Below, piece after piece: positions 924 through 38,952 of a stretch of 60,645 nucleotides of DNA; the first letter of the stretch is position 1; every line of letters starts with the position of its first letter. The DNA lies in contig CAMOGG010000002.1 in the NCBI GenBank assembly GCA_946614095.1, positions 1 to 60,645 of the forward strand, read 5' to 3'. The DNA comes from an uncultured Bacillales bacterium (GTDB taxonomy: Bacteria > Bacillota_I > Bacilli_A > RF39 > UBA660). Below the pieces are notes generated by a model. The model saw only the letters and a program-made list of their open reading frames with translations. It was not told where the DNA came from and did not search any database. Made by a program: the position numbers and the translations under genes.

Positions 924-924
924 A

Positions 925-3972: not shown

Positions 3973-4035
3973 ATGGCAAGTTGGGTCTATAAACTCAGAG
4001 TATGAAAAAATGTAAAAAATTATGAGGTGATGAAA

Positions 4036-6865: not shown

Positions 6866-6873
6866 GTGTTGGT

Positions 6874-10675: not shown

Positions 10676-10678
10676 TCT

Positions 10679-14683: not shown

Positions 14684-14700
14684 TAAAGGAGTGATATGAG

Positions 14701-15546: not shown

Positions 15547-18238
15547 AAGAATAATTGGGGTTTTTATTCTAATATTTGCTGTTTCTATCTTTGTTTTCTT
15601 ACCTAGTGAAGTATTTGCAGCTACGAAGAAAGAATGTAAGAATTATCTGACAAATACAAAGTTTATTTCTAGATATAATGCTAATATTACTACCACTGGT
15701 TCAAAAAATAAATATAAGATTTCTATTGAGCCTACTTCTTCTGATAAAAAGTTAGAAAAAGCTCTTAGAAAAGTTATTTTTAAAGTAATTAAAATTAATG
15801 ATAAAAATCAAGATGGAAGTAAAACTGTTTCTTATGGTAAACCTCTAACAATCAATGGTCAATATTTTACCAATGATCTTGGTGAAAAAGAGATGAGTAT
15901 TGTTTTAGAGTCTACTGAAAAAAGTGTCGATCCTAAATGTACTGGTACTGTAACATTTACTCTTGGAGTTACCACAGGTGGAGATGAGATTGTTTTAGAA
16001 GAGGATATTCCTACTATTGAAGATCAGTTTGGTGATGTTCAAGGAAAATTAATTGATTGTACAAAAACTCAGACTGAGGCTTTTGAAAAAGCTTTTTGTG
16101 AAACTAAAAATGCTGCTTTGAAAGCTGATCCTGATGGTACAAAAGGTTTGAATTATTCTGGAAAGTTTAATGGTCATAAGAATTTTAAAGATGTAGTTAA
16201 GGGAGAGAATGGAGAACTTGGTTATAAAAAGCTACAATGTAGTGCAACTAAGTTTGAAATTACTAATGATTATTATGTAAATAAGACACATCTTTATGGT
16301 TATGGTGAATATACTGAAAATTTTGGTAATTATACATATCATTATTCTCCAGGAGTTGTAACACAAGGTGAAAATATTAACTGTAAGGTTAGATGTGAGG
16401 AAGCTGTTGTTGTGGAATATGGTCCTCCGGTTGCTTCTAAAGCTGGTTTGTGTTTTGAATATAAAGTTAAAGTTACAAGTAGAGTTAGTTGTAATATGAT
16501 TGAAAAACCAAAAACTCCTAAAACAACGAAGCATTATTGTACTCCAACGCCTATTTGTTTAACTAGTGCGGGTACTTATACCAATCAAGGTGGTCCTAGT
16601 GAAGAGTTTGATTCTTGCGTTAAAACATGTGATGGTGGTAAATATACTGATAAATGTACGAAGAAATGTTATCAAAAAGTTTATGGTGATTCTGCTACAA
16701 AAACAACTACACGTGGAAAAGAATACTTAACAGAACAAATTAAGTATGGAGCAGATGCTTTTAGCCTTCAAGCGTGTAAAAATGAGAGTGGATTCCATGG
16801 ATGTTATTATCGTGCGGGTAATTCTATTCTTTGGGAAGGTGTTTCAAGTTCAACTCCTGGTAGATGGTACTTAGTTTCTCCTCATAAAGATTTATCAGCT
16901 TATGGAGTATTTGGTAATGGTATTTATCGTCATATTTATGGTGAAGGTAACTATTGTCATGATAATTGTTGGTGGTCTGGATGTTCTGATTCAAATGTTT
17001 ATTTAAATCCTGGTATATCAAAAAAAGATTATGAGAATAATAAGGAATTGTATGACACTGCTGTTGCACAATGTAAAGTTGAAGCATCTTGTACAACAAC
17101 TACAGCTGATTTTACAATTTCAGTAAACTATAAAAATGGTAAAAATGAAGTTAAGACTTTAGACTTCCCTTATACAACTAAGAAAGATAAAATGACATCT
17201 AAAGGATCTGATGAGAAAATAGAAGATACTAACAAAAATAATGATACAACCATCCTATGTGCAGATAGAGATCCTTTAACTGGTAAATGTAATGATGATA
17301 AAGGAAGAGGATGTTACTCTACAAAAGATGCTAAGAGAATTTATATGACAGAGTGGAGCTTCCCAGGTTCTTGGATTAATAATAAATCTGGAGAAATATC
17401 TTATGTTCCTAAAGATGATAAGAGTTGGCAAACTATGAAAAATAAATTCTGTATTCCATTAGATGCACAAGATGTTAATGTTAAATGGTGGAATTATCGT
17501 CAATTAAAAAATCCAAATTATAGTCAATCCTCAGCTTCATCAAGTGCTTATGTTGAAAAATGTGTACAGAATGGCTATGGTATTCAGAATATTAGTACAT
17601 TTAGTAATAGTGATGTAGAGGATTGGAATATTAATGCGAAAACTTCGAATTTTGGTTATTTCGGATGGAATATTCATGTATCATGTTTCTATGCATTAAA
17701 TACAGGAAAACGTACAACTACATCTACTAATACGAATTCTTCTGTTCCTAAAGAATGTTTATCTGATGCTTCTTATCGAATTCGTTCTGTAGATTTAGCT
17801 AATTTATTCCCAGCTACTGATGGATCTGTATCTGAATCAAGAGCTCCTGGATTTAACTGGAGTGAATATGCAACTAAGACAAAAGCTAATAAAGATCCGG
17901 CTAATGATTATTACGAAATTAATCCTGCTAAGTATGCTACATTTGTTGCTTCAAAAGCACAAGCAATTTATTCTGATGAGTACTTAGATTATTCAATTGA
18001 TTTAACTCGTGATATGATTGCTAAATTAAGAAAAGATAGTAAATCTAATAATTACTCTACGTATGCTAATGATGATGAGTATTTTACAAAAAATTATGTT
18101 ATTAATTATCGTAGTCCATTATTTAAAAATGGTGGAGCACTAAGTAGTAGTTCTAAGTATCCTACACTTGAGTCATTGAAATGTAATAATATGAAAAATT
18201 ATAATAGTGGTTGTGAAGAATTTGGAGGTAATGATTAA
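15524..18238 (+). CDS. Giant cysteine-rich secreted protein C2 (paralog of C1)
   Basis: Signal peptide ending SEVFA|ATKK. I count 32 Cys. Blocks shared with C1 include GNYTYHY, YGPPV..KAG.CFEY.VKVTS, CDGGKY, PGRWY, KFC.PLDA, NFG.FGWN..VSCFYA, RSVDL, GFNW and LKCNN. Confidence 0.8.
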   Translation: MNQIVRCRRIIGVFILIFAVSIFVFLPSEVFAATKKECKNYLTNTKFISRYNANITTTGSKNKYKISIEPTSSDKKLEKALRKVIFKVIKINDKNQDGSKTVSYGKPLTINGQYFTNDLGEKEMSIVLESTEKSVDPKCTGTVTFTLGVTTGGDEIVLEEDIPTIEDQFGDVQGKLIDCTKTQTEAFEKAFCETKNAALKADPDGTKGLNYSGKFNGHKNFKDVVKGENGELGYKKLQCSATKFEITNDYYVNKTHLYGYGEYTENFGNYTYHYSPGVVTQGENINCKVRCEEAVVVEYGPPVASKAGLCFEYKVKVTSRVSCNMIEKPKTPKTTKHYCTPTPICLTSAGTYTNQGGPSEEFDSCVKTCDGGKYTDKCTKKCYQKVYGDSATKTTTRGKEYLTEQIKYGADAFSLQACKNESGFHGCYYRAGNSILWEGVSSSTPGRWYLVSPHKDLSAYGVFGNGIYRHIYGEGNYCHDNCWWSGCSDSNVYLNPGISKKDYENNKELYDTAVAQCKVEASCTTTTADFTISVNYKNGKNEVKTLDFPYTTKKDKMTSKGSDEKIEDTNKNNDTTILCADRDPLTGKCNDDKGRGCYSTKDAKRIYMTEWSFPGSWINNKSGEISYVPKDDKSWQTMKNKFCIPLDAQDVNVKWWNYRQLKNPNYSQSSASSSAYVEKCVQNGYGIQNISTFSNSDVEDWNINAKTSNFGYFGWNIHVSCFYALNTGKRTTTSTNTNSSVPKECLSDASYRIRSVDLANLFPATDGSVSESRAPGFNWSEYATKTKANKDPANDYYEINPAKYATFVASKAQAIYSDEYLDYSIDLTRDMIAKLRKDSKSNNYSTYANDDEYFTKNYVINYRSPLFKNGGALSSSSKYPTLESLKCNNMKNYNSGCEEFGGND

Positions 18239-18762
18239 TGAATAAAGGTATGTTAACAATTGGAATTATTTTACTTAGTATCATTTCTTTGTTACTAATC
18301 AATGTATTAACAAATTATTCTACAGGAAGTGAGTTAGATTATTATCTTGTAAAAGAAACTACTGACGCTGCTATGGAAGACTCTATTGATAAAGTTTTCT
18401 TAAGAGAATGTGGATTACATAGAATTGATAAAGAAAGATTCGTTGAGAACTTTCTTTATCGGTTCGCTAATAGTGTGGATTCTACTCGTGATTATCATAT
18501 TAAATTTTATGATATTAATGAAGTTCCACCTAAAGTTAGTGTTAAAATTGATTCTTTGACTGTTTTATCTTTTAATGTAACAGGTGGAGATGAAAAAAAT
18601 ACTAAACAAGCTGCTGATATTACGACAAGTTATGATGCTATATTGGAAACAAATTCTTTGTCTGATTTATCAGTAGAGGAAGGACTTAAAGAGTCAAGTA
18701 AAAATTCAGTAACTTATGATCAATGTCGATCATTATTAGAATTAAAAGGGAAAGGAGAATAA
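18238..18762 (+). CDS. Small N-terminally anchored protein D2
   Basis: The ATG overlaps the C2 stop (TAATG). Roughly two-thirds identical to D1 by eye. Confidence 0.75.
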   Translation: MNKGMLTIGIILLSIISLLLINVLTNYSTGSELDYYLVKETTDAAMEDSIDKVFLRECGLHRIDKERFVENFLYRFANSVDSTRDYHIKFYDINEVPPKVSVKIDSLTVLSFNVTGGDEKNTKQAADITTSYDAILETNSLSDLSVEEGLKESSKNSVTYDQCRSLLELKGKGE

Positions 18763-18764
18763 AA

Positions 18765-19574
18765 ATGGGAAATTTGACGACTGGTCTTAAGAAGTTTATG
18801 CAAAATAAAAATACAGTAACAGTAGTTGGTGTTATTGCTGCTATTATTGTTTTATATTTTGCTTATACTATGCGTATTAGTTCAGCTATTAGTCCTGTAG
18901 TTGTTCCTTATGCTAAAGAACAAATTCCTGCTGGAACATTAATTTCTGAAGCAATGATAGGTACAATGGAAGTTCCCCCTTCTATGTTAGAGGGAGATGT
19001 TATTCGTAATACAGGTGAAATTATTGATAAATATTCTTCTGCTGATACAGTTATTCCTCAAGGAAGTTTGTTTTATAAACGTTCTGTAGTTGAAAAAGAA
19101 CAGTTACCTGCTAATATTATTTTAGATTATCCAAAAGGATATGTTTTATATAATTTATCAGTTTCTACGAATACTACTTATGGTAATTCTGTTTATCCTG
19201 GAAACTATATTGATATTTGGCTTAAAGCTGTCAATAAACTTACAGATGAACAAGTTCAAGCTGGAGCAAGCGGAGCTAATCAGATTATGTATAGTAAATT
19301 AATTTCTAATGTCAAAGTTTTGGCTGTTAAGGATGCTAATGGTCAACCTGTATTCCAGAATTTGGATGAGAATAGAGTTCCTGCAATGATAGTATTTGCT
19401 TTACCTGAAGAATATTACACTTTATTACGTAAAGCAAGTTATATGAGAACTTATGATACTACTATTGAATTGGTTCCTACTAATGAAAGTCTAAAAGATG
19501 AACCTGGAAATCTTGAGATTTCTAGTGAAGACCTAAAAGAGTGGATCAATCAAAATACTTATTGGACAAATTAA
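18765..19574 (+). CDS. cpaB: CpaB/RcpC-like pilus assembly protein (TM + SAF domain)
   Basis: AAAGGAG RBS at 18751-18757. TM helix VTVVGVIAAIIVLYFAY, then the SAF-like segment VVVPYAKEQIPAGTLISEAMIG...IPQGSLFYKRSV. Confidence 0.65.
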   Translation: MGNLTTGLKKFMQNKNTVTVVGVIAAIIVLYFAYTMRISSAISPVVVPYAKEQIPAGTLISEAMIGTMEVPPSMLEGDVIRNTGEIIDKYSSADTVIPQGSLFYKRSVVEKEQLPANIILDYPKGYVLYNLSVSTNTTYGNSVYPGNYIDIWLKAVNKLTDEQVQAGASGANQIMYSKLISNVKVLAVKDANGQPVFQNLDENRVPAMIVFALPEEYYTLLRKASYMRTYDTTIELVPTNESLKDEPGNLEISSEDLKEWINQNTYWTN

Positions 19575-19592: not shown

Positions 19593-21263
19593 ATGAATGA
19601 AAATATTTTTGATAAGTTGGATTTTGGACCTTTTCGTTCGTTACTAGATAATGATGATATAACAGATATTTCTTATGATAATAACGGTCAAATTTGGATT
19701 CGTTCTTTGACTCAAGGTTCTTTAAGGGTTGAAGTTGAAGGAGCAACTCCTGAATTTGTTGAAAAATTAGCTTTCCAATGTTCTAATGTTATGGGAACTA
19801 CGTTTAATAATGCAAAGCCTTTCTTGGATGCAGAGTCAGCAGAGCTTCGTATGAACTTTGTTCATCAAAGTATTGCTACAAATGGAATTGCTTTAGTTAT
19901 TCGTAAAACTCCTGCTAAGATTCGTTTGGAGAAAGAAAAGCTAATACAAGAAGATTATTTTACTCCGGCTATTCATGATTTTTTAATTAAATGTGTTGAA
20001 GGGCACTGTAATATTATGGTTGCTGGAGAGACTGGTTCTGGTAAAACAGAGTTTGTTAAATACTTGGCTAGTCACACAAAAACGAATGAAAAAATTATTA
20101 CGATTGAGGATACTTTGGAGTTACACTTAGATAAGATTTTCCCTCAACGTGATATTGTTGCTATGAAGACGAATAATGTAGCTAGTTATTCTGATGTTTT
20201 AGTTACATGTATGCGTCAGAATCCAAAATGGATTTTGCTTTCAGAGGTTCGTTCAGCAGAAGCTGTTTCTGCTGTTCGTAACTCTATTTCATCAGGACAT
20301 AATATTTTATCTACTATCCATGCTGATAAAGCTTCTGCTATTCCTTATCGTTTGTATTCCTTGATGGAGACTGATTTGGATGTTCGTCAATTCCTAACAA
20401 CGATTTATCGTTATATTCAATTAGGTGTTCATATTAAAGCATTTTATAGTAAAGAATATGGAAAATTCCATCGTGAATTAGATGAAGTTGCAGAGTTTTA
20501 TGTTGATGATGAAAATGTTCCTCGTTCTAGAATTATTTATCAAAAGATCTTTGGTAAGCCGATGATGTGTAAACCTAGTGCGCATTTGATTGAGTATTTG
20601 GAAAATCAAAATATTGAGGTTCAAGATATTATACGTGACTTACCTGATAATCTTCCTATTCATGAATTTCAAGAAGAATCAAAAAATAATGAAAATGATG
20701 ATTCTGTTAAAGCAGAAGAAACTGCTACTAATCCAGTTTCAGATGAAAAACAACCTTCAGCAGTGGTTACTACTCCTGAAGTTGATAATTCCTCATCTGA
20801 AGTTGTACCTTCAAATGTAGAGACTGCGGTAGTTTCAGAAAATCAGGATGTTACTAAAGAAGTTTCAAATGAGAATGTAGGTAGTGTTTCATCTACTGTT
20901 CCTGTAATTGAGACTCCTACGTTACCTGTAATAGATGCGGTTACTAATGCTGTACCTTCGATCCAAGAAAGTGTACCGGTAACTACTGCTACAGAAGATT
21001 CTATTTCTTCTAAGATTCAAACAGCTCCAGAGGTAGTTGCTCCTCCGCCAGTAGAGGGTATACCTGATGTTGGTGCTGTTGCAAATGTTGAAAATGTACA
21101 GGCTGTTGAGAGTACTCCAGTACCTACTGTTGCTGGAATTGCACCTGTTGTAAGTCCTGTTGCTACGCAACAACAAGTTGTTATTCAAGCTAATGTTCCG
21201 CCTGTTGTTCCTCCTGTTCCTGGAGTGGCACCAGTTACGGCAGTTGCTAAGCTTGGTGAATAA
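19593..21263 (+). CDS. tadA: TadA/CpaF-family secretion ATPase with long Pro/Val-rich C-terminal tail
   Basis: Walker A is AGETGSGKT, Asp box ITIEDTLEL, Walker B ILLSEVRSAEA and His box LSTIHA. The last roughly 200 aa are low-complexity P/V/A/T/E. Confidence 0.85.
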   Translation: MNENIFDKLDFGPFRSLLDNDDITDISYDNNGQIWIRSLTQGSLRVEVEGATPEFVEKLAFQCSNVMGTTFNNAKPFLDAESAELRMNFVHQSIATNGIALVIRKTPAKIRLEKEKLIQEDYFTPAIHDFLIKCVEGHCNIMVAGETGSGKTEFVKYLASHTKTNEKIITIEDTLELHLDKIFPQRDIVAMKTNNVASYSDVLVTCMRQNPKWILLSEVRSAEAVSAVRNSISSGHNILSTIHADKASAIPYRLYSLMETDLDVRQFLTTIYRYIQLGVHIKAFYSKEYGKFHRELDEVAEFYVDDENVPRSRIIYQKIFGKPMMCKPSAHLIEYLENQNIEVQDIIRDLPDNLPIHEFQEESKNNENDDSVKAEETATNPVSDEKQPSAVVTTPEVDNSSSEVVPSNVETAVVSENQDVTKEVSNENVGSVSSTVPVIETPTLPVIDAVTNAVPSIQESVPVTTATEDSISSKIQTAPEVVAPPPVEGIPDVGAVANVENVQAVESTPVPTVAGIAPVVSPVATQQQVVIQANVPPVVPPVPGVAPVTAVAKLGE

Positions 21264-21278
21264 AAAAGGGGTGATGTT

Positions 21279-22181
21279 ATGTATATTGAAGAGTTATTTA
21301 TTATTATTGTCTTTGTAGTTGCTATTTATTTATATAGAAACTATCAAGGAGAGAATGTAGGTAAATATGTATTAACACAAGTGCAAGGTGTCTATGATCG
21401 TTTTGCTCCATATTCCTTTAAAGTTGTTCGTGAAAAAACGAAACAATTAGGAGAGGAGTATACACCAAGACAATATGCTATTCAAGTTTCGTTATTTGCC
21501 TCTTTTGCAGCAGTAGTTACTTATTTATATTTTTATAATTTAATTATTAGTATTATTTATGCTTTAATTGCTGTATCGTTTGTACCATATTTAACCTATT
21601 TAAGGTGTAAAAAGACTTATTCGGAGTTCTTATTTGAACAAGTGCAAGTTTATACTTCTAATACGATTATGGAATTTGCTACGACACAATCGTTTGTTAA
21701 AGCTTTGGAGGGTGTAGCGAACTCTGGTATTTTAGAGGACCCTGTACTTAGTGATGTTAGACAAATGATTACAATGTCTTATGATAATGGTACCATTGAC
21801 GAGGCTTTAGAGTATATGAGTAAGTTATATCCATATTATATTGTAAAAAACATGCATCAATTGTTTTTACAAATTACTAAAGAAGGTGCTCAAAACTCTG
21901 CTGATTCTCTTGAAAACATGCAACTAGATATTGATATGCTTGTTGAGAGTGTTTATCGAGATCGTATTGAGCGTGCTACTTTCCATAAATCTTTTTTACA
22001 GTTTGGTATTATGCTTTATTTACTAGTTATGTTAGTTCAGTATTTGCTTGGTAGAGAAACTTATTTGGTTTTGCTCGAAAGATGGTATATTCAGTTTTTG
22101 ATGCATGGTGTCTTAATTGTTAATACTTATTTCCTTTTAAAAGGAGAAAAATACTATAATGAGAATGTAGGTGCTGAATAA
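21279..22181 (+). CDS. tadB: TadB-like platform protein (T2SS-F domain)
   Basis: N-terminal TM helix, a cytoplasmic helical domain and C-terminal TM helices. Sits directly after the ATPase, and its stop overlaps the next gene (ATGA-type junction at 22181). Confidence 0.65.
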   Translation: MYIEELFIIIVFVVAIYLYRNYQGENVGKYVLTQVQGVYDRFAPYSFKVVREKTKQLGEEYTPRQYAIQVSLFASFAAVVTYLYFYNLIISIIYALIAVSFVPYLTYLRCKKTYSEFLFEQVQVYTSNTIMEFATTQSFVKALEGVANSGILEDPVLSDVRQMITMSYDNGTIDEALEYMSKLYPYYIVKNMHQLFLQITKEGAQNSADSLENMQLDIDMLVESVYRDRIERATFHKSFLQFGIMLYLLVMLVQYLLGRETYLVLLERWYIQFLMHGVLIVNTYFLLKGEKYYNENVGAE

Positions 22182-22984
22182 TGGAGATACTTATTGTAGG
22201 AGCAATTATTATCTTTGTATTAATCTATAATAATACGATTGATAAAGATAAATTTTTTGCTGATAATCAAAAATATTTGGAAGCGTTAAAAGAAGATGAT
22301 TATCAATTCTTGGTTTATGCTCGTTATGGTGAAGACGTAGATGTTGACCAATTATTTTCTCAAAGAATTACATATGCTTTTGTTGCTTTTCTGGTTGTTC
22401 TTGTCTTAACTATTTCTGGCAATAATAGTGCTGAAATATTTAATTCTCAATTCTTTTTAAATATGGTTTTAGCTGCTGTCATAGCAGTGGTTATGTTTAA
22501 GGTTCCATATACTCAGTTAAAAAGTTATTATAAACAGCATCTACATGAGATAGACGTTATGTTACCTTATTATTTAAAGAGTTTGGAGATTTTAATTCAG
22601 CATTATACGGTTCCAGTAGCAATTGGTAAATCGATTGAAGATGCACCTGAAATCTTCAAGCCTGGACTTCGTAGAATGATTGATCGAATTAATTCTGGTG
22701 ATGCTACTGTTGATCCTTATATGGAATTTGCGAATACTTATCCGGTTCGGGATTCGATGAGAATGATGCGTTTGTTGTATCGTTTGGGAATTGGATCACA
22801 AGAGCGTAAACAAGAGCGATTGATGATGTTTTCAAAAACTGTTTCTTCTCTTCAAAATAAAGCAAGAGAGACAAAATATAAGGAACGTTTAAATCATATG
22901 GAAAGTCAAACAATGGTTATGTTAGTTGTTACTGGTATTGGTGTTATGCTTGTTATTTTGATTTCTATGATGATGATGTTCTAG
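22181..22984 (+). CDS. tadC: TadC-like platform protein (T2SS-F domain)
   Basis: Same architecture as TadB: LPYYLKSLEILIQHYTVPVAIGKSIEDAP...RMIDRINSGD, then a terminal TM helix VMLVVTGIGVMLVILISMM. Confidence 0.65.
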   Translation: MEILIVGAIIIFVLIYNNTIDKDKFFADNQKYLEALKEDDYQFLVYARYGEDVDVDQLFSQRITYAFVAFLVVLVLTISGNNSAEIFNSQFFLNMVLAAVIAVVMFKVPYTQLKSYYKQHLHEIDVMLPYYLKSLEILIQHYTVPVAIGKSIEDAPEIFKPGLRRMIDRINSGDATVDPYMEFANTYPVRDSMRMMRLLYRLGIGSQERKQERLMMFSKTVSSLQNKARETKYKERLNHMESQTMVMLVVTGIGVMLVILISMMMMF

Positions 22985-22991
22985 AAAATGA

Positions 22992-23020
22992 TTGATATTT
23001 TGTAATGTATTTGGTATAAT
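22992..23020 (+). promoter_or_regulatory. Near-consensus SigA promoter for the pilin gene
   Basis: TTGATA (22992-22997), 17-nt spacer, then TGgTATAAT (TATAAT at 23015-23020). Confidence 0.7.
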
Positions 23021-23055
23021 AATTTTGTATATATTAGAAAGGATGGGATGAATGA

Positions 23056-23217
23056 ATGAAAGCTGCTACAGGTGAATTAAACTTAACTGTTATTACTTTA
23101 ATTGCTATTGCTGCAGTTGTTGGTTTCTTTTTGTCAGTTATGTGGCCAAAGATTCAAGAAAGTATCAATACTCAATGGGATGATATTTCAACTCAAGATG
23201 GAAGACCTGGAAATTAA
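23056..23217 (+). CDS. 53-aa Flp/Tad-type major pilin candidate (absent from the ORF track, <60 aa)
   Basis: My translation is MKAATGELNLTVITLIAIAAVVGFFLSVMWPKIQESINTQWDDISTQDGRPGN. It has a short polar leader ending in Gly, a 22-aa hydrophobic helix and a short tail. GAAAGGATGGG RBS and its own strong promoter. Confidence 0.7.
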   Translation: MKAATGELNLTVITLIAIAAVVGFFLSVMWPKIQESINTQWDDISTQDGRPGN

Positions 23218-23268
23218 TAATTTTATTTTGAATTAAAAATTATTTTATAAAAGGTGGGAGGATTTGCT

Positions 23269-23721
23269 ATGCAAGATGCTTTAGGTGGTACTTTTAATCT
23301 TGTTTTAATTGCTGTTTTTTTAGTTATTATATCAGGAGTTTTAGGCTTTACAGTTAACTATACGAAAGCTTTTAAAATGAAAAACATTGTTATTTCTGCA
23401 ATGGAAGAATACGAAGCTGCTAGATGTGTTGGAGAGGGTAGTGAAGGTTCTGCTTGTAGAGAGAAGATTAAAGAAGAAGCAAGACGCATAGGGTATTCTC
23501 CTTCTGCTTTGTCGTGTTCTGATCAATATACTGCATATGATGGATTATTTTGTGCTACTGAGAATAAAATTAAATCTTCTAAAGATAGTAGTCGGTACGT
23601 TTCTTATCGTATTATTACACAAGTCGATGCTGATTTTCCGATTATACGCAACATTATGAGTTTTAGTTTTTTTCAAGTTTCTGGTGACACAAGAGTTATA
23701 CAAAAACCAAGTACAAGGTAA
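23269..23721 (+). CDS. Pseudopilin-like protein 1 (TadE/TadF analogue?)
   Basis: Starts MQDALGGTFNLVLIAVFLVIISGVLGF. Shares NYTKAF(K/R)MKN with the next gene. 4 Cys. GGTGGGAGG RBS; ATG 23269 preferred over GTG 23254. Confidence 0.65.
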   Translation: MQDALGGTFNLVLIAVFLVIISGVLGFTVNYTKAFKMKNIVISAMEEYEAARCVGEGSEGSACREKIKEEARRIGYSPSALSCSDQYTAYDGLFCATENKIKSSKDSSRYVSYRIITQVDADFPIIRNIMSFSFFQVSGDTRVIQKPSTR

Positions 23722-23731
23722 GGTGATTTAG

Positions 23732-24217
23732 ATGCGTGATGCGTTAGGTGGAACAGTAAATTTAGTTATTGTTATAGTTTTTATCGTTATTGTTTTTGGC
23801 TATCTTGCATTTAATGTAAACTATACGAAGGCTTTTCGTATGAAAAATAAAATTATTTCAACTTATGAAGATTATAATGGTGACTGTGATTCTGATTGTC
23901 AGAAAATTATCCAAGATTATGCAAAACAAGTTGGGTATCGTCCTGATATTCCAAGTTGTCCAGAAGGTATGCATGAAGCTAATAATGTTATTTTATCAGA
24001 AGGTTATAGTGGAAAATATTGTTTTAAGGAAATTAGTGTTAATTCTAGTGCTTCCACTAGTGGTAATGACTATATTCCGATGGATTCTTCAAGTAGAAAA
24101 TATTATCGAATAGCGACTAAAATTACTGTCGATATTCCTATTATTAAAAATGTTATTGGTGACTTACGCGTATTTTGGGTTTATGGTGATACAAAGGTAT
24201 TTAAAAAAGAAAACTAA
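23732..24217 (+). CDS. Pseudopilin-like protein 2
   Basis: Starts MRDALGGTVNLVIVIVFIVIVFGYLAF. Paralog of 23269-23721, including the shared C-terminal GDT(R/K)V. 4 Cys. Confidence 0.65.
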   Translation: MRDALGGTVNLVIVIVFIVIVFGYLAFNVNYTKAFRMKNKIISTYEDYNGDCDSDCQKIIQDYAKQVGYRPDIPSCPEGMHEANNVILSEGYSGKYCFKEISVNSSASTSGNDYIPMDSSSRKYYRIATKITVDIPIIKNVIGDLRVFWVYGDTKVFKKEN

Positions 24218-24237: not shown

Positions 24238-25254
24238 GTGAATGTTATTGTTTCTAATGATCAACAGAATCAATTATCTAATTTAGATGTTGACATTATT
24301 AAAAGTTTAACTGGTGTTTATGATGCTTCTGAAATTGTTGAAATGTTCAAGAGCTTTTTTTATAGTAAAATGATATTGGATGTTTCTGCCCTTAAGAATT
24401 ATTCTGATTTAAAAACATATGAATTATTAGTATCAGGATTAGATGCTGATAAAATTATTTTTTTGTTGCCAGAAGGAAGTCAGTTATGTACACCTAATTT
24501 TTTATCTCAGTTAATTTCTATTGGAATTTATAATTTTACAACGAATTTAAATGGAGTTAAATATTTGTTGAAAAAACCTAATACTTTACAGGATGTGGAA
24601 CACATTCGTAAAATGGCTAATGTACAAAATTCTAATGAGACAGGTGCTGCTGTTGCGACGGTTGTTTCTACATCTAAAGTTCAAAATGGTTCGACAATTA
24701 TAGGAGTTAAAAATGTTACTGAACATGCCGGAGCAACTACCTTTATTTATTTATTAAAAAAAGAATTAGCTTTTACTTATGGTGCAGATAATGTTATAGC
24801 TATTGAAATTGATAAAAATGATTTTCAATTATTTCGCGATAAAAATATGGTTTCTGTTAAACAAGCTGAAATTAAGAATGCAATTCAAAAATATTCTTCT
24901 GCTACTTTTATTTTAGTAGATTTAAATACTTGTACAGATGATAGTTTTTGTGGGGATACTTTATTTTTAATGGAACCAAGTACTATTAAATTGAATCGTT
25001 TAGTTACTAGAAATAAATATGTTTTTAGTAAGCTTGTAAATAAAAAAGTTATTTTAAATCAAAGTTTATTAATGAATAATGATGTTTTTGATTTTGAAAG
25101 AGAAGCTGGTATTAAAGTATTTTATAATATGCCTCCATTGGATGAAAGAAAGAGAAATGGTGTTGTAAATGATTTCTTATCTAAGTTAGGTTTATTAAAT
25201 GAACAAGTAAGAAATACTGGTTCTGGTAAAATATTTGGATTATTTCGACGTTAA
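24238..25254 (+). CDS. tadZ: TadZ/CpaE-like protein (pseudo-receiver + ParA/MinD-like domain with degenerate P-loop)
   Basis: TIIGVKNVTEHAGATTFIYLL occupies the position of the deviant Walker A, and FILVDLN resembles a Walker B. Its position at the end of the tad module fits. GTG start. Confidence 0.45.
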   Translation: MNVIVSNDQQNQLSNLDVDIIKSLTGVYDASEIVEMFKSFFYSKMILDVSALKNYSDLKTYELLVSGLDADKIIFLLPEGSQLCTPNFLSQLISIGIYNFTTNLNGVKYLLKKPNTLQDVEHIRKMANVQNSNETGAAVATVVSTSKVQNGSTIIGVKNVTEHAGATTFIYLLKKELAFTYGADNVIAIEIDKNDFQLFRDKNMVSVKQAEIKNAIQKYSSATFILVDLNTCTDDSFCGDTLFLMEPSTIKLNRLVTRNKYVFSKLVNKKVILNQSLLMNNDVFDFEREAGIKVFYNMPPLDERKRNGVVNDFLSKLGLLNEQVRNTGSGKIFGLFRR

Positions 25255-25660: not shown

Positions 25661-25704
25661 GTTCTGTTATACTTATTATGATAAAATATAATTGGAGTGG
25701 TTTT

Positions 25705-26241: not shown

Positions 26242-28497
26242 ATGATGGGAGAGACTGATTTAACAGAAGCTAATGTAGTAACAAATGGTATCCGATATGC
26301 TTTATCGTTACTTGATTTACCTTTTTTTGGATTATTAGCGATACTTTATCAATTATTCTTTAATGTTGCATCTGTTGAACTATTTAGTAAATCCATTATG
26401 AAATTTTTTGAAAGAGTTCAAATTATTATTGGGATTTATATGATGTTTCAACTTGCAGTTACTATCTTAAGAGGAATTGTAGATCCGGATAGTTTTATGA
26501 AGAATCAAGGAGGGTCAAAAGGACTTGTTCCTAGAATTATTATTTCTCTTACTATGTTAGCTCTTATTGTACCGGTGAAAACTTCTGGTGGAGAATCTAG
26601 TGAGTTTGCTGCACAGATTAATAATCAGGGATTATTGTTCGGTACATTAAGTTCTTTACAATATCGAATTATTAATAATAATACGATTGGAAAATTAGTA
26701 TTAGGAGTAAATGATACAAGTTCTAATTTTATTAATTCTGAAGATGATGAAGATTCTGAACAGTTAGAAACATCCGCTCGTATTTTTGCTTCTACTGTTT
26801 TAAAGGGTTTTTATCGGATTAATTTAATTCCTGAGGCTGACCGTGATGAAAGTGATAATCCTGATGGTAAGGCGGATGATCAAGTAAATGCATATCGTAT
26901 GTGTAAATCTATTAGTACAGATATTATTAATGATGATCCTCCTGGAAAGTATAATCGAATTGATGCTGATCCAAGTGAAATTATTGGGATGATCAATGAA
27001 ACCTGTACTTCTACCTATGAGCCTTCTGATGCGTCGTCTGGTGGACTTCTTGAAACTGTTGGAGGAATGTTTTCTACTGGTACAAAGCGATATGTTTTTG
27101 TTCATATTCCTATTCTTTCAGCAATTGTTGCTGGAATTTTCTGTGTTATTTTATTAAGTTTTACGATTGATATTGCGGTACGTATGATTAAGCTTGCAAT
27201 GTTACGTTTAATTGCTCCAATTCCTATTATTAGTTATATGGATCCGAATGGAAGTAAAGATGGTGCTTTTAGTTCTTGGTGGAAGACATTACTGTCTACT
27301 TATTTAGATTTATTTGTTCGATTAGCATCTGTTTATTTTGTTATTTTCTTAATTCAAGATATGATTACCTATGGTATTATTGTTAATAAGATGGAAGGAC
27401 CACTTGGTGCTTTTACCACAATAGCAGTATTCATTGGATTATTTGCTTTTGCAAAACAAGCTCCTAAATTCTTTAGAGAAATCTTAGGATTAAAGGGAGA
27501 AGGAAGTGGCTTCTTCAGTGGATTTGGTGCTATTGGTGCTGCTGCTGGTTTGATTAGTGCTGGTGCCGGAGTTGCTGCTGCTATTCCTGGGGCTATTGGT
27601 TCTGGACTTGCTCATGCAAGGGCAAGTCGTATGGCAGATGAGACTAGGGCAAATCTTGGTGAAAAAACAGTTTTTGGAAATGATGTTGATCCTGATGGTA
27701 TCTTTAATCGAGGAAAACATGTCGTAGCTGGTATTGCTGGAGCACTTACTGGTGGAGTTGCAGGAGCACATGCTGCTGCAACAGCAAAAGATCATGCCTT
27801 TGATGCAAGTGTAAATGCAATGAGGCAGAGAAATGCTTCTGCTATTAGTAGAGGAAATGATGGCTCTACTTTATTAGGTACTTGGGGTTCTACTGCTAGT
27901 AACATATTTACCGGTGAGGGAAGAGCTGCTGCTGTAGATAGAGATATTAACTCTAATAAAAATCGCTTAGATGCCTTAAAAGCTATCAAATCTCGTGTTT
28001 CTGGTGAAATGGTTAAAGCTGATTGGACTTCTGGTAGTTTAGGCTTAAAGGATTCCTCTGGAAATGATATTGCTACAAATTATAAGAGATTTATGGCTAC
28101 GTATGAAGCTGCAAAATCTAGTGGTGCTACATCAATGGTTGTGCATAATGATATAACAGGTCGGGATGAAACAATCTCTATGGAAGCTGCAGAATATCAA
28201 AAAGGATATTTACTTAAAACAAATGAAAATGATTATGTTGTTAGAAATGTAAATGGAACGGCAACAAAAATTGATGATAGATTATTGACATTAGTTCATA
28301 ATGCTGAAGTATTAGGAGGTTCTGCTAATTTTGTTAGAAATGCTGATGGAACGATTGAAAAAGGTGATAATATTCATATTACGAATCGTGATGCAATTAC
28401 TAATGGTATTGATGGATTTGAGGATTATAATACTCAATTGGCAAGAGAAAATTCTATTAATAAGGCTAATGACCGACATAGTGGAGATAAGAAATAG
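26242..28497 (+). CDS. VirB6/TrbL-like polytopic T4SS channel protein with Gly/Ala-rich segment and soluble C-terminal domain
   Basis: Multiple TM helices. IDIAVRMIKLAMLRLIAPIPIISY is a TrbL/ICE-membrane-protein-type motif. It sits directly upstream of the VirB3/VirB4 genes. Confidence 0.6.
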   Translation: MMGETDLTEANVVTNGIRYALSLLDLPFFGLLAILYQLFFNVASVELFSKSIMKFFERVQIIIGIYMMFQLAVTILRGIVDPDSFMKNQGGSKGLVPRIIISLTMLALIVPVKTSGGESSEFAAQINNQGLLFGTLSSLQYRIINNNTIGKLVLGVNDTSSNFINSEDDEDSEQLETSARIFASTVLKGFYRINLIPEADRDESDNPDGKADDQVNAYRMCKSISTDIINDDPPGKYNRIDADPSEIIGMINETCTSTYEPSDASSGGLLETVGGMFSTGTKRYVFVHIPILSAIVAGIFCVILLSFTIDIAVRMIKLAMLRLIAPIPIISYMDPNGSKDGAFSSWWKTLLSTYLDLFVRLASVYFVIFLIQDMITYGIIVNKMEGPLGAFTTIAVFIGLFAFAKQAPKFFREILGLKGEGSGFFSGFGAIGAAAGLISAGAGVAAAIPGAIGSGLAHARASRMADETRANLGEKTVFGNDVDPDGIFNRGKHVVAGIAGALTGGVAGAHAAATAKDHAFDASVNAMRQRNASAISRGNDGSTLLGTWGSTASNIFTGEGRAAAVDRDINSNKNRLDALKAIKSRVSGEMVKADWTSGSLGLKDSSGNDIATNYKRFMATYEAAKSSGATSMVVHNDITGRDETISMEAAEYQKGYLLKTNENDYVVRNVNGTATKIDDRLLTLVHNAEVLGGSANFVRNADGTIEKGDNIHITNRDAITNGIDGFEDYNTQLARENSINKANDRHSGDKK

Positions 28498-28513
28498 AGG
28501 GAGTGTGATATAA

Positions 28514-28834
28514 GTGAATAATTATTTGATACCGGCTAATACGAAGAGGGGTAAATTAATTTTAGGATGGTTTCGGCCTTTTGATTTAGCTTTGTTTGGA
28601 ACCGGGGTTTTTCTTACGATTGTATTACTTGCATTTCTTCCTGTTGGAGAAATTTGGGTTACTTTATTAATCTTAAGTCCAGCTCTTATTACAGGATTCT
28701 TAGTTTTACCAGTTCCTTATTATCATAATATGATGAATATTATTGTGGAAGCATTTGAGTTTTATACTCATGATCAAACATATAAATGGAAAGGTTGGTG
28801 TTATAGAGATGGCAGCATCAAAGGAAAAAAGTAG
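28514..28834 (+). CDS. PrgI/VirB3-like small membrane protein
   Basis: 106 aa. Starts IPANTKRGKLILGWFRPFDLALFGTG, then two TM helices. Sits immediately before VirB4. GTG start after a GAGGGAG RBS. Confidence 0.6.
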   Translation: MNNYLIPANTKRGKLILGWFRPFDLALFGTGVFLTIVLLAFLPVGEIWVTLLILSPALITGFLVLPVPYYHNMMNIIVEAFEFYTHDQTYKWKGWCYRDGSIKGKK

Positions 28835-29411
28835 TAATGTAAAGACAAAGAGTAAAAGTAGTTCTACTAGTCGTACTAGTGGTCCTTTTACAGAAAACTG
28901 GTTACCAGTTCGTTCTATTCAAAATAATATGATTATTACTCGTAATAATTATAAAGTAGGTGGAGTTAAGATTGCTCCTCGTAATATCTTTATCTTAGAC
29001 ACAGATACTCAAAATAATATTTTACTTGGTCTTCGAAATTTCTATAATACTATTGATTATGAGTTTTGGTTAGTGGTTGCGGATCGTCCTGTTGATATTT
29101 CTGTTTATATGTCACAGATGCAATTATTACTTAATGAGACAAATTCTCCTGCTATTCGTAAATTGATTATGCAAGATATTGAAAAGGGAGAGACGTTTAT
29201 TCGTAATAATGTTGTTGATACGGAATATTATTTCTTATTTAAGACAAAAGATGTTGATTTGTTTCAGAAAAGAGTTCGTCAGATGATTAATGGACTTGCT
29301 ACTTGTGGTTTGAATGCATCTATGATTAGTAATTCTGATTTAAGATTAATTCTTGAAAACTTCCTTAATGGAGGAAATACGACAGAGTTTGGAACGGTGA
29401 TGCCTGTATGA
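28809..29411 (+). CDS. virB4: VirB4 N-terminal domain encoded as a separate ORF
   Basis: ENWLPVRSIQNNMIITRNNYKVGGVKIAPRNIFILDTDTQNNILLGLRNFYNTIDYEFWLVV matches the N-terminal segment of monoderm VirB4 (TcpF/Orf16-type). Its stop overlaps the next ATG (ATGA at 29408-29411). Confidence 0.6.
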   Translation: MAASKEKSSNVKTKSKSSSTSRTSGPFTENWLPVRSIQNNMIITRNNYKVGGVKIAPRNIFILDTDTQNNILLGLRNFYNTIDYEFWLVVADRPVDISVYMSQMQLLLNETNSPAIRKLIMQDIEKGETFIRNNVVDTEYYFLFKTKDVDLFQKRVRQMINGLATCGLNASMISNSDLRLILENFLNGGNTTEFGTVMPV

Positions 29412-31198
29412 GTACAAGTTTAAGAAGTCAAATTGCTCCTAAGGGGTTACATTTTAATCCGAGCGATTTTATGATTAGTGATAAGTATGCTACTATTTTA
29501 TCAGTTGTTTCTTATCCAAAATATATTTCTCCTGGTTATTTATCTTCTCTTACGAATATGAGTGGAATTAAGGTTGTTGTAAAACATATACCTGTTCCTT
29601 GGGCTGAAATGAGTAAGATGTTAAATAAGCAGGTTGCTGATTTGAAACAAAGATATCAAGATGAGAGAGACCAAACTTTAAGAGAAAGAATTAGACAAGA
29701 TGCTGAAAGTTTGGAATACTTTACTTCTATGCTTGCCGGTAGTCAAGCTCGTATCTTTGATTTTCAAATGCATATTATGATTACTGCTGATACAAAGGAA
29801 CAATTGGAATTAAAAAAATTAAATGTAAAGAATTATTTGGATGCTATGGAGTTAAAGGCAATTTCTTTGCGTTTTGAGCAAGAAAAAGTATTGAAATCTA
29901 TTATTCCAGTTTTTCCTAAACAAGATGTTGAAGATAGAATTGGTACACCAATTCCATCTGTTACTATTTCTGCTATGTATCCATTTATTTTTGATAGTTT
30001 AAAAGATCCAGGACTTGCTACTTTGCTTGGAGTAGATTTCTCTGGAGGAGTTATTTTATTTAATCAGTTTTTATATAAAATACGTAAAGAAAATAATAGA
30101 AATAATGCTAATATGATTATTCTTGGTACTTCTGGTTCTGGTAAGAGTACAGCTGCAAAGTTACTTTTAAGAACTCATATACGTAATGGATGTCAAATTG
30201 TTATTATTGATCCTGAAGATGAATTTCGTGAAATTACTCAGGCTTTTGGAGGAGATACTGTTGATATTGGTAAAGGTGGAGAGTTTGGACTTATTAATCC
30301 ACTTGAAATTGTAATTGATGCAGATGAAGAAGAGATTCGTCAGGGTCTTGGTTATACAGTACTTACTCGTACTTTGCAATTTTTAAAGGCCTTTATGAAG
30401 TATTATGATCCATCTATTCCAGAAGATGTTTTGACGATGTTTTCTGAGGTTGTTCAAGATACTTATAAACGTTTTGGTATTGATTTTAATACGGATTTTT
30501 CAAGATATACTTCAGCTGATTATCCTACTTTTAGTGATGTTTATGCAACTATTAAAGGTAGATTGATGTCTATGACAGATCAGACTCAAGAGAGAGATAT
30601 CATGGAACGATTAGAATTAAAGATTCGACCAATTGTTAAAGAATTAAAGTTTTATTTTGATGGTCATACTACTATTCGTAAAGGTAGTGACTTTATGGTC
30701 TTTAATATTAAAGAATTAATGAATAGTGATTCTACTGTTAAAAATGCTTTATTCTTTAATGTATTAAAGTATGCTTGGGGATTGTGTTTGGACTTTAATG
30801 TTGATACTATACTAATGGTAGATGAAGCACATGTATTGTTAGGTGATAATAATGCACTTGGAGCTGACTTCTTAGCTCAAGTTCAAAGACGTGCTCGTAA
30901 GTATAATACTGGAACGATTATTATTACTCAACAACCTAGTGATTTTTCTGATCCTTCTGTTATTACGCAAGGTAAAGCTATTTTTGATAACTCTTCTTAT
31001 TATTTAGTTATGGGGCTTCGTAAACAAGCTGTTGAAGATTTATCATTATTAATTGATTTAAATGAAAGTGAAAAAGAAAGTATTAAACATTATTCTCAAG
31101 GTGAAGCGTTGTTTGTTTGTGGTAGCCGAAGAATGAGAATTAATGTTGCGGTTACACAAGAAGAACTGGATTCCTTTGGTACAGGAGGGGGATTCTAG
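29408..31198 (+). CDS. virB4: VirB4-like T4SS ATPase (central and ATPase domains)
   Basis: IAPKGLHFNPSDFMISDKYATILSVVSYPKYI, Walker A GTSGSGKST, Walker B ILMVDEAH and IIITQQPSDF. Confidence 0.85.
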   Translation: MSTSLRSQIAPKGLHFNPSDFMISDKYATILSVVSYPKYISPGYLSSLTNMSGIKVVVKHIPVPWAEMSKMLNKQVADLKQRYQDERDQTLRERIRQDAESLEYFTSMLAGSQARIFDFQMHIMITADTKEQLELKKLNVKNYLDAMELKAISLRFEQEKVLKSIIPVFPKQDVEDRIGTPIPSVTISAMYPFIFDSLKDPGLATLLGVDFSGGVILFNQFLYKIRKENNRNNANMIILGTSGSGKSTAAKLLLRTHIRNGCQIVIIDPEDEFREITQAFGGDTVDIGKGGEFGLINPLEIVIDADEEEIRQGLGYTVLTRTLQFLKAFMKYYDPSIPEDVLTMFSEVVQDTYKRFGIDFNTDFSRYTSADYPTFSDVYATIKGRLMSMTDQTQERDIMERLELKIRPIVKELKFYFDGHTTIRKGSDFMVFNIKELMNSDSTVKNALFFNVLKYAWGLCLDFNVDTILMVDEAHVLLGDNNALGADFLAQVQRRARKYNTGTIIITQQPSDFSDPSVITQGKAIFDNSSYYLVMGLRKQAVEDLSLLIDLNESEKESIKHYSQGEALFVCGSRRMRINVAVTQEELDSFGTGGGF

Positions 31199-31214
31199 AA
31201 TTTAATGAAGTTAG

Positions 31215-33590: not shown

Positions 33591-33603
33591 AAGGAGATTC
33601 TAT

Positions 33604-34383
33604 ATGGGAAATAAGAAAAAGTATATTATAGCGTTTATTATTCTTGTTCTTTTTGGTGTTATTATGTTTCTCCTTTTAGGAGTAAATAATATACGAGAAA
33701 ACCAAATGAGTACTACACTGATTGTTGGTGATAATACCATTTGGCATTATTCTGAAAAAAAATGGGTACATCTTACCTCAGCAAAATCTTTTCATAATTT
33801 AGAATGGAAGCAGTATCATATTTATTTGGATAATAAAAAATATGGTGATTATTATTTATGGCATGACGATAAGTGGTATGCTTTTGATTCTCGAAAAAAT
33901 GCTGTTCCGTTAAAGGGAGAATTATTGGCTATTAAATCAAACTATGATATTCCTGTTGAGAAAGGATTGGAAGAGAATGTAGATGATAGTGAATATATTA
34001 ATCAAGTGTTAAGTGATTATAATCTTTCCTTATCTAGTCATTTTACTTCTAAATATAAAGTTCTTTTTGATTTTGATTCTGATGGAGTAGAAGAAGAGTT
34101 TTATGTGATTAGTAATGTATTTGCTTTAGATTTTCAACCTGATACGCTTTTTTCTATTGTTTTTATGGTAAAAGACGATACAATATATCCCATTTATCAA
34201 GATATTAGCTCTAACCAGTCTATGAATGGATGTAAGCCATTTTTTAAATCTTTCTTAGATTTGAATGAAGATCAGAAGTATGAATTTATTTTAAGTTGTG
34301 GTTATTATGCTAATGAAAAGCAAATCGATATGTTATATCATTTTGATCAGGAAGAGTTTAAAATTATCATTTCTAGTTCATAA
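33604..34383 (+). CDS. N-terminally anchored protein of unknown function (positional candidate for VirB8/TcpC/PrgL role)
   Basis: AAGGAG RBS. A single TM helix (YIIAFIILVLFGVIMFLLLGV) is followed by a roughly 220-aa extracytoplasmic domain. The functional assignment rests on position only. Confidence 0.35.
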   Translation: MGNKKKYIIAFIILVLFGVIMFLLLGVNNIRENQMSTTLIVGDNTIWHYSEKKWVHLTSAKSFHNLEWKQYHIYLDNKKYGDYYLWHDDKWYAFDSRKNAVPLKGELLAIKSNYDIPVEKGLEENVDDSEYINQVLSDYNLSLSSHFTSKYKVLFDFDSDGVEEEFYVISNVFALDFQPDTLFSIVFMVKDDTIYPIYQDISSNQSMNGCKPFFKSFLDLNEDQKYEFILSCGYYANEKQIDMLYHFDQEEFKIIISSS

Positions 34384-34388
34384 AAGTA

Positions 34389-34417
34389 ATGACAGTTTTT
34401 AAAAGATAAGTTATAAT
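34389..34417 (+). promoter_or_regulatory. SigA-type promoter upstream of virD4
   Basis: aTGACA (34389-34394), 17-nt spacer, TATAAT (34412-34417). Confidence 0.55.
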
Positions 34418-34440
34418 AAAGAGAGAGAGAAGGGAATCCT

Positions 34441-38940: not shown

Positions 38941-38952
38941 AAGGTGTTTTTT

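Follow-up and report, generated by a model that had tools for sequence, protein, structure and literature searches.

A candidate pilin family with a non-canonical N-terminus in a Tad-like module adjoining a type IV secretion cluster of uncultured gut Bacilli

Can a 53-codon open reading frame (ORF) that carries none of the classical prepilin motifs encode the major subunit of a type IV filament and, if it does, how might such a subunit be processed and what might the filament serve? The question is raised by contig CAMOGG010000002.1 of an uncultured Bacillales bacterium (GenBank assembly GCA_946614095.1; GTDB lineage Bacteria; Bacillota_I; Bacilli_A; RF39; UBA660), of which we analyzed positions 1 to 60,645 of the forward strand; this whole stretch of 60,645 nucleotides (nt), which makes up nearly all of the 60.9-kb contig, is called the window throughout. 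The ORF lies at 23056-23217, directly after two genes for putative platform proteins of a Tad-like assembly machine and directly before two longer genes whose products begin in a similar way. An earlier annotation of these genes, made from the DNA letters alone and referred to here as the original prediction, took the first for a pilin and the other two for pseudopilins, proposed that they share a distinct class of leader, and suggested that this leader is removed by a peptidase encoded elsewhere or is not removed at all. The reading that we come to, and to which we give somewhat better than even chances, is that the 53-amino-acid (aa) protein serves as major subunit in a type IV filament that is short and of Flp size, and that would be a pilus or else a pseudopilus spanning the cell wall; how it would work is set out below. 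The features on which the argument draws are collected in Table 1.

The translation of the ORF is MKAATGELNLTVITLIAIAAVVGFFLSVMWPKIQESINTQWDDISTQDGRPGN (53 codons, with the opening residues MKAATGELNLTV...), and as a TGA codon immediately precedes the ATG at 23056, its N-terminus can be no longer than MKAATG in this genome. An ORF of this size in AT-rich DNA may always have arisen by chance, or may in truth be a regulatory or other non-coding element, and its mere 53 codons, together with the chance frequency of promoter-like sites in this region of a window that has a G+C content of 30%, are what speak for such an explanation. The family to which the ORF belongs speaks strongly against it. 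The gene had been described as unannotated, which is true of the ORF list that was used at the time; public gene callers do call it, as a hypothetical protein. More than 1000 homologues were found in a collection of 5.8 billion proteins, the best of them 70-86% identical, and those that carry names are hypothetical proteins of metagenome-assembled genomes (MAGs) of 'Bacilli' or 'Mycoplasmatota'. Among 1.84 billion 50%-identity representatives, the family profile matches 593 clusters when the threshold is E <= 1e-3 and 170 when it is E <= 1e-10, and a scan of GTDB species representatives places the family in at least 147 species, every one of them an uncultured gut MAG with the label Bacilli, Tenericutes, Mycoplasma sp. 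CAG:877 or Erysipelotrichaceae. In the 82 distinct DNA sequences that were compared for codons 1-14, the minor-allele fraction averages 0.25 at third codon positions, as compared to 0.025 at first and 0.009 at second positions, with synonymous changes exemplified by Ala4 (GCA, GCT or GCG) and Gly6 (GGT or GGA). Because the variation sits at third codon positions, the ORF is a real gene, as the original prediction supposed, and there is purifying selection on the translated protein. Amino acids that stay invariant while third positions vary, the size of the family, and the conservation of both synteny and promoter refute the chance-ORF explanation, to which we attach practically no probability.

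A consensus promoter had also been pointed out ahead of the gene. Taken by itself this match proves nothing, because the 49 promoter-like sites that were found in the 8.5 kb around the pilin gene are no more than chance would provide (45.4 are expected from shuffled sequence). Of 80 distinct tadC-pilin intergenic regions from homologous loci, however, 76 have this same architecture, TTGnnn-17-TGnTATAAT, with a median distance of 35 nt between the end of the -10 element and the pilin ATG; the pilin gene is thus provided, within the operon, with a conserved promoter of its own. The ribosome-binding site of the original prediction stands as well, and AAAGGA is likewise found upstream of the pilin homologue in one relative (L001), in which a terminator-like hairpin precedes the pilin promoter. 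The all-A/T hairpin that had been described behind the gene (23216-23244) has to be given up as an attenuator or terminator: it is no more stable than shuffled sequence (z = -0.36), it is not conserved, and in relatives the gap between the pilin stop codon and the next gene has a median of 20 nt and is often just 3 nt, which leaves no room for a hairpin.

Type IV major pilins evolve as an invariant N-terminal helix followed by a hypervariable, exposed C-terminus. Among 142 cluster representatives of the 53-aa family, mean pairwise identity is 83% for residues 1-6, 81% for residues 7-14, 55% for residues 15-25, 21% for residues 26-32 and 20% for the tail, and the conservation pattern is in this respect pilin-like. 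The same representatives range in length from 35 to 107 aa (median 60 aa), and 48 of the 142 have two or more Cys residues in the tail. The N-terminus is nearly invariant across the family, with the logo M-K-[E/A]-A-[T/S]-G-E-L-N-[M/L]-T-V-[I/V]-T, in which Gly6 is without exception and is followed by a hydrophobic stretch. What is unusual for a pilin is that residues 1-6, the would-be leader, are as constrained as the residues that follow them, a point to which we return.

The two genes that follow encode paralogous proteins that start MQDALGGTFNLV... and MRDALGGTVNLV..., respectively. Their family (134 matches, without a Pfam domain) has the N-terminal logo M-[R/K/Q]-[D/E]-A-[F/Y]-G-G-[I/V]-x-N-[I/L/M]-V, continuing into YTKAF[K/R]MKN, with Gly6 conserved in 98% and Gly7 in 95% of its members. 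The element A-x-x-G-x-x-N-L, to which the original prediction had drawn attention, is truly shared between these proteins and the pilin; a more accurate form of it is M-[KRQ]-[DE/A]-A-x-G and then x(2,3)-N-[LIM], i.e., with a one-residue indel before the Asn. An hhalign comparison of the two families places Met1 on Met1 with 40% identity over 25 columns (pairwise E = 0.025), and in Smith-Waterman alignments of single sequences over the first 30 residues only 24 and 165 of 5000 shuffles reach or exceed the observed score. When the 6537 ORFs of 89 loci are searched for the expression ^M[KRQ][DEA]A.G, it selects 159, without exception genes for pilins or pseudopilins. An AlphaFold2 model of a pseudopilin, built on an alignment of 69 sequences, has a predicted local distance difference test (pLDDT) score of 85 and consists of a helix at residues 2-47, a second helix at 62-74 and a five-stranded beta-sheet, with conserved Cys pairs; as modeled, it has the pilin-like 'lollipop' topology. 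Pfam scans of individual pseudopilins give weak matches to PF13400 'Tad' (TadE/G-like) in 11 of 69 (best 0.038) and to DUF4320 in 7 of 69 (best 0.008). In these features the small gene behaves like a major pilin gene and the next two like genes for minor pilins, in keeping with what had been proposed for them.

The surroundings of the three genes are remarkably constant. We compared 88 related loci, each taken with 10 kb of sequence to its left and right, and in all 88 the order is Ig-like protein, sortase-like protein, Cys-rich protein of ~1000 aa, DUF5411 protein, CpaB-like protein, ATPase, a 300-aa and a 267-aa membrane protein, pilin, one or two pseudopilins, the 338-aa protein, two small two-helix membrane proteins, a TrbL/VirB6-like protein, a protein of ~105 aa, TraC-like protein, VirB4 and a SpoIID-domain hydrolase, with VirD4 further downstream. 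The first of the two membrane proteins, which is represented by at least 7995 clusters at 90% identity, matches a 'type II secretion system F family protein' of a Priestia koreensis plasmid in tblastn (E = 6e-7); that protein in turn scores 3.4e-5 against Pfam T2SSF (24.2 bits, with a cut-off of 25.2), and the TadB-like profile also finds the first membrane ORF after the ATPase gene in pXO1 (E = 7.9e-6). The profile of the second one finds, in pLS20 (E = 2.5e-4) as in pXO1 (E = 0.013), the membrane protein that comes second behind tadA; in both plasmids the two profiles fall on the two membrane genes behind the ATPase gene in corresponding order. The CpaB-like protein scores below curated cut-offs (26.9 bits as against 28.8 for RcpC, and 33 as against 71 for TIGR03177). 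The pseudopilins and the platform proteins are tied to the TadE/TadF and T2SSF families, respectively, only by links that are weak or transitive, and we read the module, on the evidence of such matches, as a divergent member of a Tad-like lineage of the Bacillota that has become fused to a type IV secretion system (T4SS) of the Gram-positive type.

In the mechanism that we favor, the strong conserved intra-operon promoter would drive the pilin gene so that the subunit is made in excess, and the pilin would enter the membrane in such a way that its N-terminus stays cytoplasmic and its C-terminus faces outward. The invariant segment MK[E/A]A[T/S]G-ELN[M/L]TV[I/V]T would then serve as the element for recognition and assembly, and the two minor-pilin-like proteins that share this element (M[KRQ][DE]A[FY]GG..N) would prime or cap the fibre. 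Polymerization would be driven by the CpaF/FlaI-like ATPase on the divergent TadB/TadC-like platform, together with the CpaB-like protein, and the hypervariable, often Cys-rich tail would form the exposed surface. Cleavage after Gly6 would be the work of an A24 prepilin peptidase whose gene lies in another part of the genome, and the fibre may serve the adjoining VirB4/VirB6/VirD4 system, e.g., in cell-cell contact or in crossing the cell wall. Polymerization, cleavage and the link to the T4SS are inferred.

Table 1. Features of the window that bear on the candidate pilin and its surroundings
Feature	Position	Strand	Evidence or remarks
53-aa pilin-like gene, proposed major fibre subunit	23056..23217	+	MKAATGELNLTVITLIAIAAVVGFF...; homologues, codon-position variation, N-terminal identity
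Sigma-A-type promoter of the pilin gene (TTGATA, 17-nt spacer, TG-n-TATAAT)	22992..23020	+	11 of 12 matches; extended -10 TG
Shine-Dalgarno-like AAAGGA	23038..23043	+	12 nt 5' of the start codon; direct reading
150-aa minor-pilin-like protein 1	23269..23721	+	Family N-terminal logo; AlphaFold2 model; weak PF13400/DUF4320 matches
161-aa minor-pilin-like protein 2	23732..24217	+	Paralogue of the 23269..23721 gene; weak match to the 120-aa protein of pLS20 (DUF4320-like)
CpaF/TadA/FlaI/VirB11-family secretion ATPase	19593..21263	+	Pfam T2SSE, 95.9 bits (cut-off 24.9)
TadB-like polytopic membrane protein, putative first platform protein, divergent T2SSF relative	21279..22181	+	Priestia and pXO1 matches
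TadC-like polytopic membrane protein, putative second platform protein	22181..22984	+	Profile matches to pLS20 and pXO1
CpaB/RcpC-like protein	18765..19574	+	RcpC 4.7e-6; TIGR03177 2.9e-8; BLASTP 4e-26 to annotated pXO1 CpaB
DUF5411 protein (MNKG/MLTIG...), possible further pilin-like component	18238..18762	+	DUF5411 1.6e-42; second copy at 10679-11206
Conserved 338-aa protein following the minor pilins	24238..25254	+	Present in 85 loci
TrbL/VirB6-like protein	26242-28497	+	Part of the Gram-positive-type T4SS genes (26242..36756)
TraC-like protein	28743-29411	+	T4SS gene
VirB4-like protein	29408-31198	+	T4SS gene; pLS20 match 2.4e-32
SpoIID-domain hydrolase	31215-33590	+	T4SS gene
VirD4 coupling protein	34441-36756	+	T4SS gene; pLS20 match 2.4e-56
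1078-aa protein with canonical class III signal (MKRIRNSKG/FTLVELL...)	48141..51377	+	PF07963 N_methyl 2e-8, above cut-off

Several results, those on processing in the next paragraph among them, weigh against this reading. None of 56 family members matches the pilin hidden Markov models (HMMs) Flp_Fap (PF04964), Flp1_like (PF16982) or N_methyl (PF07963), even at E <= 10, the N_methyl model (G/[FM]xxxE) finds nothing among the pseudopilins either, and the window's 53-aa protein itself has no match in Pfam or NCBIfam; the absence of both the Flp motif (G/xxxxEY) and the type IVa motif (G/FxxxE), on which the original prediction had insisted, is thereby borne out. Counting from Gly6, the logo has Thr at +5 and Val at +6, where the Flp motif has Glu and Tyr, and cleavage after Gly6 would put Glu at +1. 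A family-profile search for solved pilins recovered none, its best match being ATP synthase subunit b (E = 0.04) among chance transmembrane-like matches, and Foldseek comparison of the pseudopilin model with the PDB gave nothing at E <= 0.001, with EpsI appearing only at E = 5. As for the machine, Pfam T2SSF is absent from all 71 members scanned (33 TadB-like and 38 TadC-like), profile searches of the PDB with both proteins and an hhalign comparison between them were negative, and the AlphaFold2 model of the TadB-like protein reaches a pLDDT of 62, with Foldseek matches that are meaningless. The ATPase is nearly as close to VirB11 as it is to CpaF (FlaI 6e-19, CpaF 7e-18 and VirB11 5e-14 against solved structures), and NCBIfam ranks VirB11 (the best), 'TadA family conjugal transfer-associated ATPase' and FlaI close together. 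These last results are what one would expect if the 53-aa protein were not a filament subunit at all, and were instead a small single-pass membrane component of a complex between the T4SS and a VirB11-like ATPase, as in machines of the pLS20 type, with its conserved N-terminus docking on the cytoplasmic ATPase or on membrane proteins and the two larger proteins acting as similarly anchored extracellular accessory factors. The closest plasmid relatives of the ATPase (the tadA product of pLS20 and a CpaF/VirB11 protein of pXO1) are encoded in conjugation operons, the module is always contiguous with VirB6, VirB4 and VirD4, and a 2025 review (PMC12857230) states that Gram-positive T4SSs do not encode pili, conjugative pili included. 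A strong, conserved promoter of its own and a hypervariable, Cys-rich extracellular tail are nevertheless better suited to an abundant surface polymer; the CpaB/RcpC-like protein is specific to Tad systems, the TadB-like protein connects to an annotated T2SSF protein, and the pseudopilin model has pilin-like topology. On balance we regard the membrane-component explanation as distinctly improbable.

If the protein is a fibre subunit, as we favor, the next question is whether its first six residues are removed. No A24 peptidase is encoded in the window, by Pfam match or by a GxGD[..]K signature in any frame, as had been noted before, and none is found in any ORF of the 88 related loci or in the Pfam lists of seven related contigs. 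This absence is ordinary for type IV filament systems: one prepilin peptidase frequently serves several of them, and there are entire classes, MSH for one, whose loci contain none (Denise 2019). Moreover, the window encodes a canonical N_methyl prepilin (Table 1), so that an A24 peptidase is probably encoded elsewhere in the genome. The prepilin in question is a giant pilin-like adhesin with Listeria-Bacteroides repeats that is unlinked to pilus machinery in the window. The Gly itself argues for cleavage, in that three gene families have it equally far from Met1, as is the hallmark of an A24 cleavage site. PilD-type cleavage depends mainly on the Gly at -1, and a leader of six residues matches those of type IVa pilins in length. 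The would-be leader, on the other hand, is conserved like the mature N-terminus and is usually net-neutral (MKEATG), both of which are atypical of a leader that is to be discarded; class III leaders are basic. Since residues 1-6 are as conserved as residues 7-14, an uncleaved N-terminus has to be taken seriously. The subunit would then be leaderless, with MK[E/A]A[T/S]G never removed and no prepilin peptidase needed, and the charges through which subunits pair, contributed in classical pilins by a free N-terminal amine and Glu5, would come from Lys2, Glu/Asp3 and Glu7. The equal conservation of the two segments is maintained although the tails have fully diverged, selection on residues 1-6 acts on protein rather than on DNA, [KRQ]2, [DE]3 and A4 are conserved in the pseudopilins too, and the acidic residue that might be looked for at +5 from Gly6 is lacking. 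Such strong conservation could instead reflect strict recognition by a peptidase, and we know of no leaderless type IV pilin. We consider a leaderless fibre subunit unlikely overall, though it is the stronger of the two contenders set against cleavage of a pilin, and, given a fibre subunit, we favor cleavage after Gly6 by an unlinked A24 prepilin peptidase only narrowly over no cleavage. What stands of the 'distinct leader class' is therefore best described as a family-specific, non-canonical N-terminus, which is genuine; the word leader presumes a cleavage.

Among known systems, the closest match in function and organization is the Flp pilin with its TadE/TadF pseudopilins in a Gram-positive tad locus, and formal membership fails on motif and HMM. 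Like the Flp pilins of Tad (type IVc) pili, e.g., those of Aggregatibacter (Flp1), Caulobacter (PilA) and Bifidobacterium breve (tad2003), the protein is a tiny subunit of about 50 aa with a conserved hydrophobic N-terminal helix and a variable C-terminus, and its gene stands between a TadC-like gene and two pilin-like genes, with a CpaB-like protein and a CpaF-like ATPase encoded nearby. In B. breve tad2003 we take the order to be the same (ATPase, two platform genes, pilin, two pseudopilins), with a peptidase that is presumably unlinked there too. Unlike Flp pilins, the family lacks G/xxxxEY, has a leader of just six residues that is itself invariant, places Glu directly after the Gly and Asn at +3, and, as is also true of its pseudopilins with respect to TadE, has no match to the corresponding HMM; unlike in Tad systems, the platform proteins show no detectable T2SSF domain, neither a TadZ/CpaE ParA-like protein nor a TadV peptidase was recognized in the locus, and the module is fused to a T4SS. 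With the class III signals of type IVa pilins and ComGC (G/FTLxE) the family shares a short leader of 6-7 residues that ends in Gly and is followed by some 20 hydrophobic residues, and it differs from them in lacking Phe at +1, Glu at +5 and a match to the N_methyl HMM. One protein of a related contig (P0307, from L085) has a canonical Flp/ComGC-type leader, MRLKLNNKG/QTLVEYVLI..., fused to the C-terminal half of the pilin family and, if real, would tie the family directly to classical prepilins; it was left out of the argument, as its contig of 729 bp with 0.59x coverage may be an assembly chimera.

The Tad-like lineage of the Bacillota to which the module appears to belong has been noticed before, with no pilin assigned to it: 'Flp-like' pilins and tad-like loci without recognizable prepilins were described from Gram-positive bacteria (Imam et al. 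2011, PMC3244431), and a CpaF/PilC/DUF5411 system was predicted in Clostridia (Miller et al. 2022, PMC9523054). Those systems resemble ours as Firmicute Tad-like loci with pilins outside the G/xxxxE[Y] rule and with DUF5411 as a recurrent partner; the present family and its motif were not described there, and here a candidate pilin is identified and its motif defined. We likewise found no description of the family in the literature on RF39, on pLS20 pili or on DUF4320. Collinear modules, with position-specific pairwise matches, exist in the tadA region of pLS20, in pXO1 and in the P. koreensis plasmid (NZ_CP061869.1), each consisting of DUF5411, (CpaB), ATPase, two membrane proteins and a DUF4320-like pilin-like protein, with DUF5411 directly upstream of the Tad-like module and with no annotated A24 peptidase in any of the three loci. 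The pLS20 module (L089, NC_015148.1 9446-13334) encodes a DUF5411-like protein, tadA, two membrane proteins of 267 and 245 aa, a 120-aa DUF4320-like protein and a 47-aa single-helix membrane protein, and lies, as does the module in the window, upstream of VirD4, VirB6 and VirB4. The loci of pXO1 (L090, 65494-84261) and of the Priestia plasmid (L091) contain CpaB, an AAA ATPase, CpaF, two membrane proteins, DUF5411 and DUF4320, and pXO1 has in addition two tandem Flp-like genes of 67/68 aa (...SSENG/MLIALAV). The similarity of the pilin family to these 67/68-aa proteins, to the 47-aa protein of pLS20 and to Caulobacter PilA is not significant, and the plasmid proteins lack the MK.A.GELN motif; unlike the plasmid modules, the cluster in the window is chromosomal, is conserved across a whole lineage and has no relaxase in view. 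A type IV filament encoded together with VirB4 and VirD4 has precedents in the R64 thin pilus and PAPI-1, where it is thought to mediate mating contacts (PMC12857230). Those are type IVb pili of bacteria with two membranes, unlike the Tad-like system of a one-membrane host described here, which shows no relaxase.

The adjoining secretion genes encode VirB4, VirD4, a VirB6/TrbL-like protein and a cell-wall hydrolase, as in a pLS20-like conjugative T4SS, and their synteny with the Tad-like module is kept in relatives. The whole cluster of 33 kb (5096-37998) is flanked by housekeeping genes (greA at 4027 and rmuC at 38944), its scanned ORFs contain no relaxase or integrase domains, though no search was aimed at an oriT, and it has the appearance of a machine that is chromosomal and shared by the whole lineage, and not of a mobile element; it is common in uncultured gut Bacilli. 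Just 5' of the VirB6-like gene are two paralogous small proteins (25314-25619 and ~25702-26217) with two predicted membrane helices each, a topology that resembles that of T4SS pilins of the VirB2/TrbC type; except for chance-level PF13400 they match no family. The conserved 338-aa protein has no match in Pfam or NCBIfam, and an assignment of it as TadZ was rejected, as it has no similarity to the TadZ-like AAA ATPase of pXO1. The ATPase carries a low-complexity C-terminal tail of ~200 residues (20640-21263), rich in Pro, Val, Ala and Ser and unusual for secretion ATPases; the total length of this protein is 430-556 aa among relatives. Upstream of the CpaB-like gene, a cassette of four genes is duplicated (5096-11206 and 12878-18762), each copy encoding an Ig-like surface protein of ~590-600 aa, a sortase-like protein with an ISLxTC motif and a weak Pfam Sortase match, a large Cys-rich secreted protein of ~900-1000 aa and a DUF5411 protein. 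The large Cys-rich proteins have Sec signals, no C-terminal LPXTG and no family match. The DUF5411 proteins, in the window and in relatives, start MNK[G/A/S][M/I/Y]L[T/L/A]VGII (N-terminal logo MNK[G/A/S][MIY]L), and the original prediction had set this beginning beside that of the pilin. The similarity does not rise above shuffled sequence, and these proteins look like a separate K-[G/A/S] class; the resemblance to archaeal-type class III signals that had been remarked upon applies to them and not to the pilin, in view of their basic start, small residue and hydrophobic stretch, which we take to be the features of such signals. In a divergent clade of related loci (L086-L088), genes for an Rce1-like/CPBP intramembrane protease and a thioredoxin lie directly upstream of the cluster (519-1676, minus strand), and the pilins of this clade have Cys-rich tails and are accompanied by a second small gene of the pilin-like kind (82 aa).

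With these genes, a concrete candidate pilin and two minor pilins can be assigned to a very widespread and so far unnamed Tad-like module. That module is physically joined to a VirB4/VirB6/VirD4 system, whereas pili are held in reviews to be lacking in Gram-positive T4SSs, and a bolder conjecture can be built on the conjunction: that the Gram-positive-type T4SSs found in this lineage and, to judge from collinearity, also the pLS20/pXO1 family build a Tad-derived fibre from a previously unrecognized pilin class, whose MK(E/A)A(T/S)GELN start is uncleaved or is not handled by a linked A24 peptidase, so that a leaderless or non-canonically processed pilin would form the 'missing' pilus of single-membrane conjugation-type machines. 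We consider this conjecture doubtful as it stands, and it can be put to a direct test, as pLS20 is a genetically tractable Bacillus subtilis plasmid with a collinear module. The motif itself, a pilin N-terminus without Glu5 in which the 'leader' is constrained just as the mature helix is, challenges the rules by which pilin-finding software operates, and it could explain the 'pilin-less' Tad loci of the Firmicutes.

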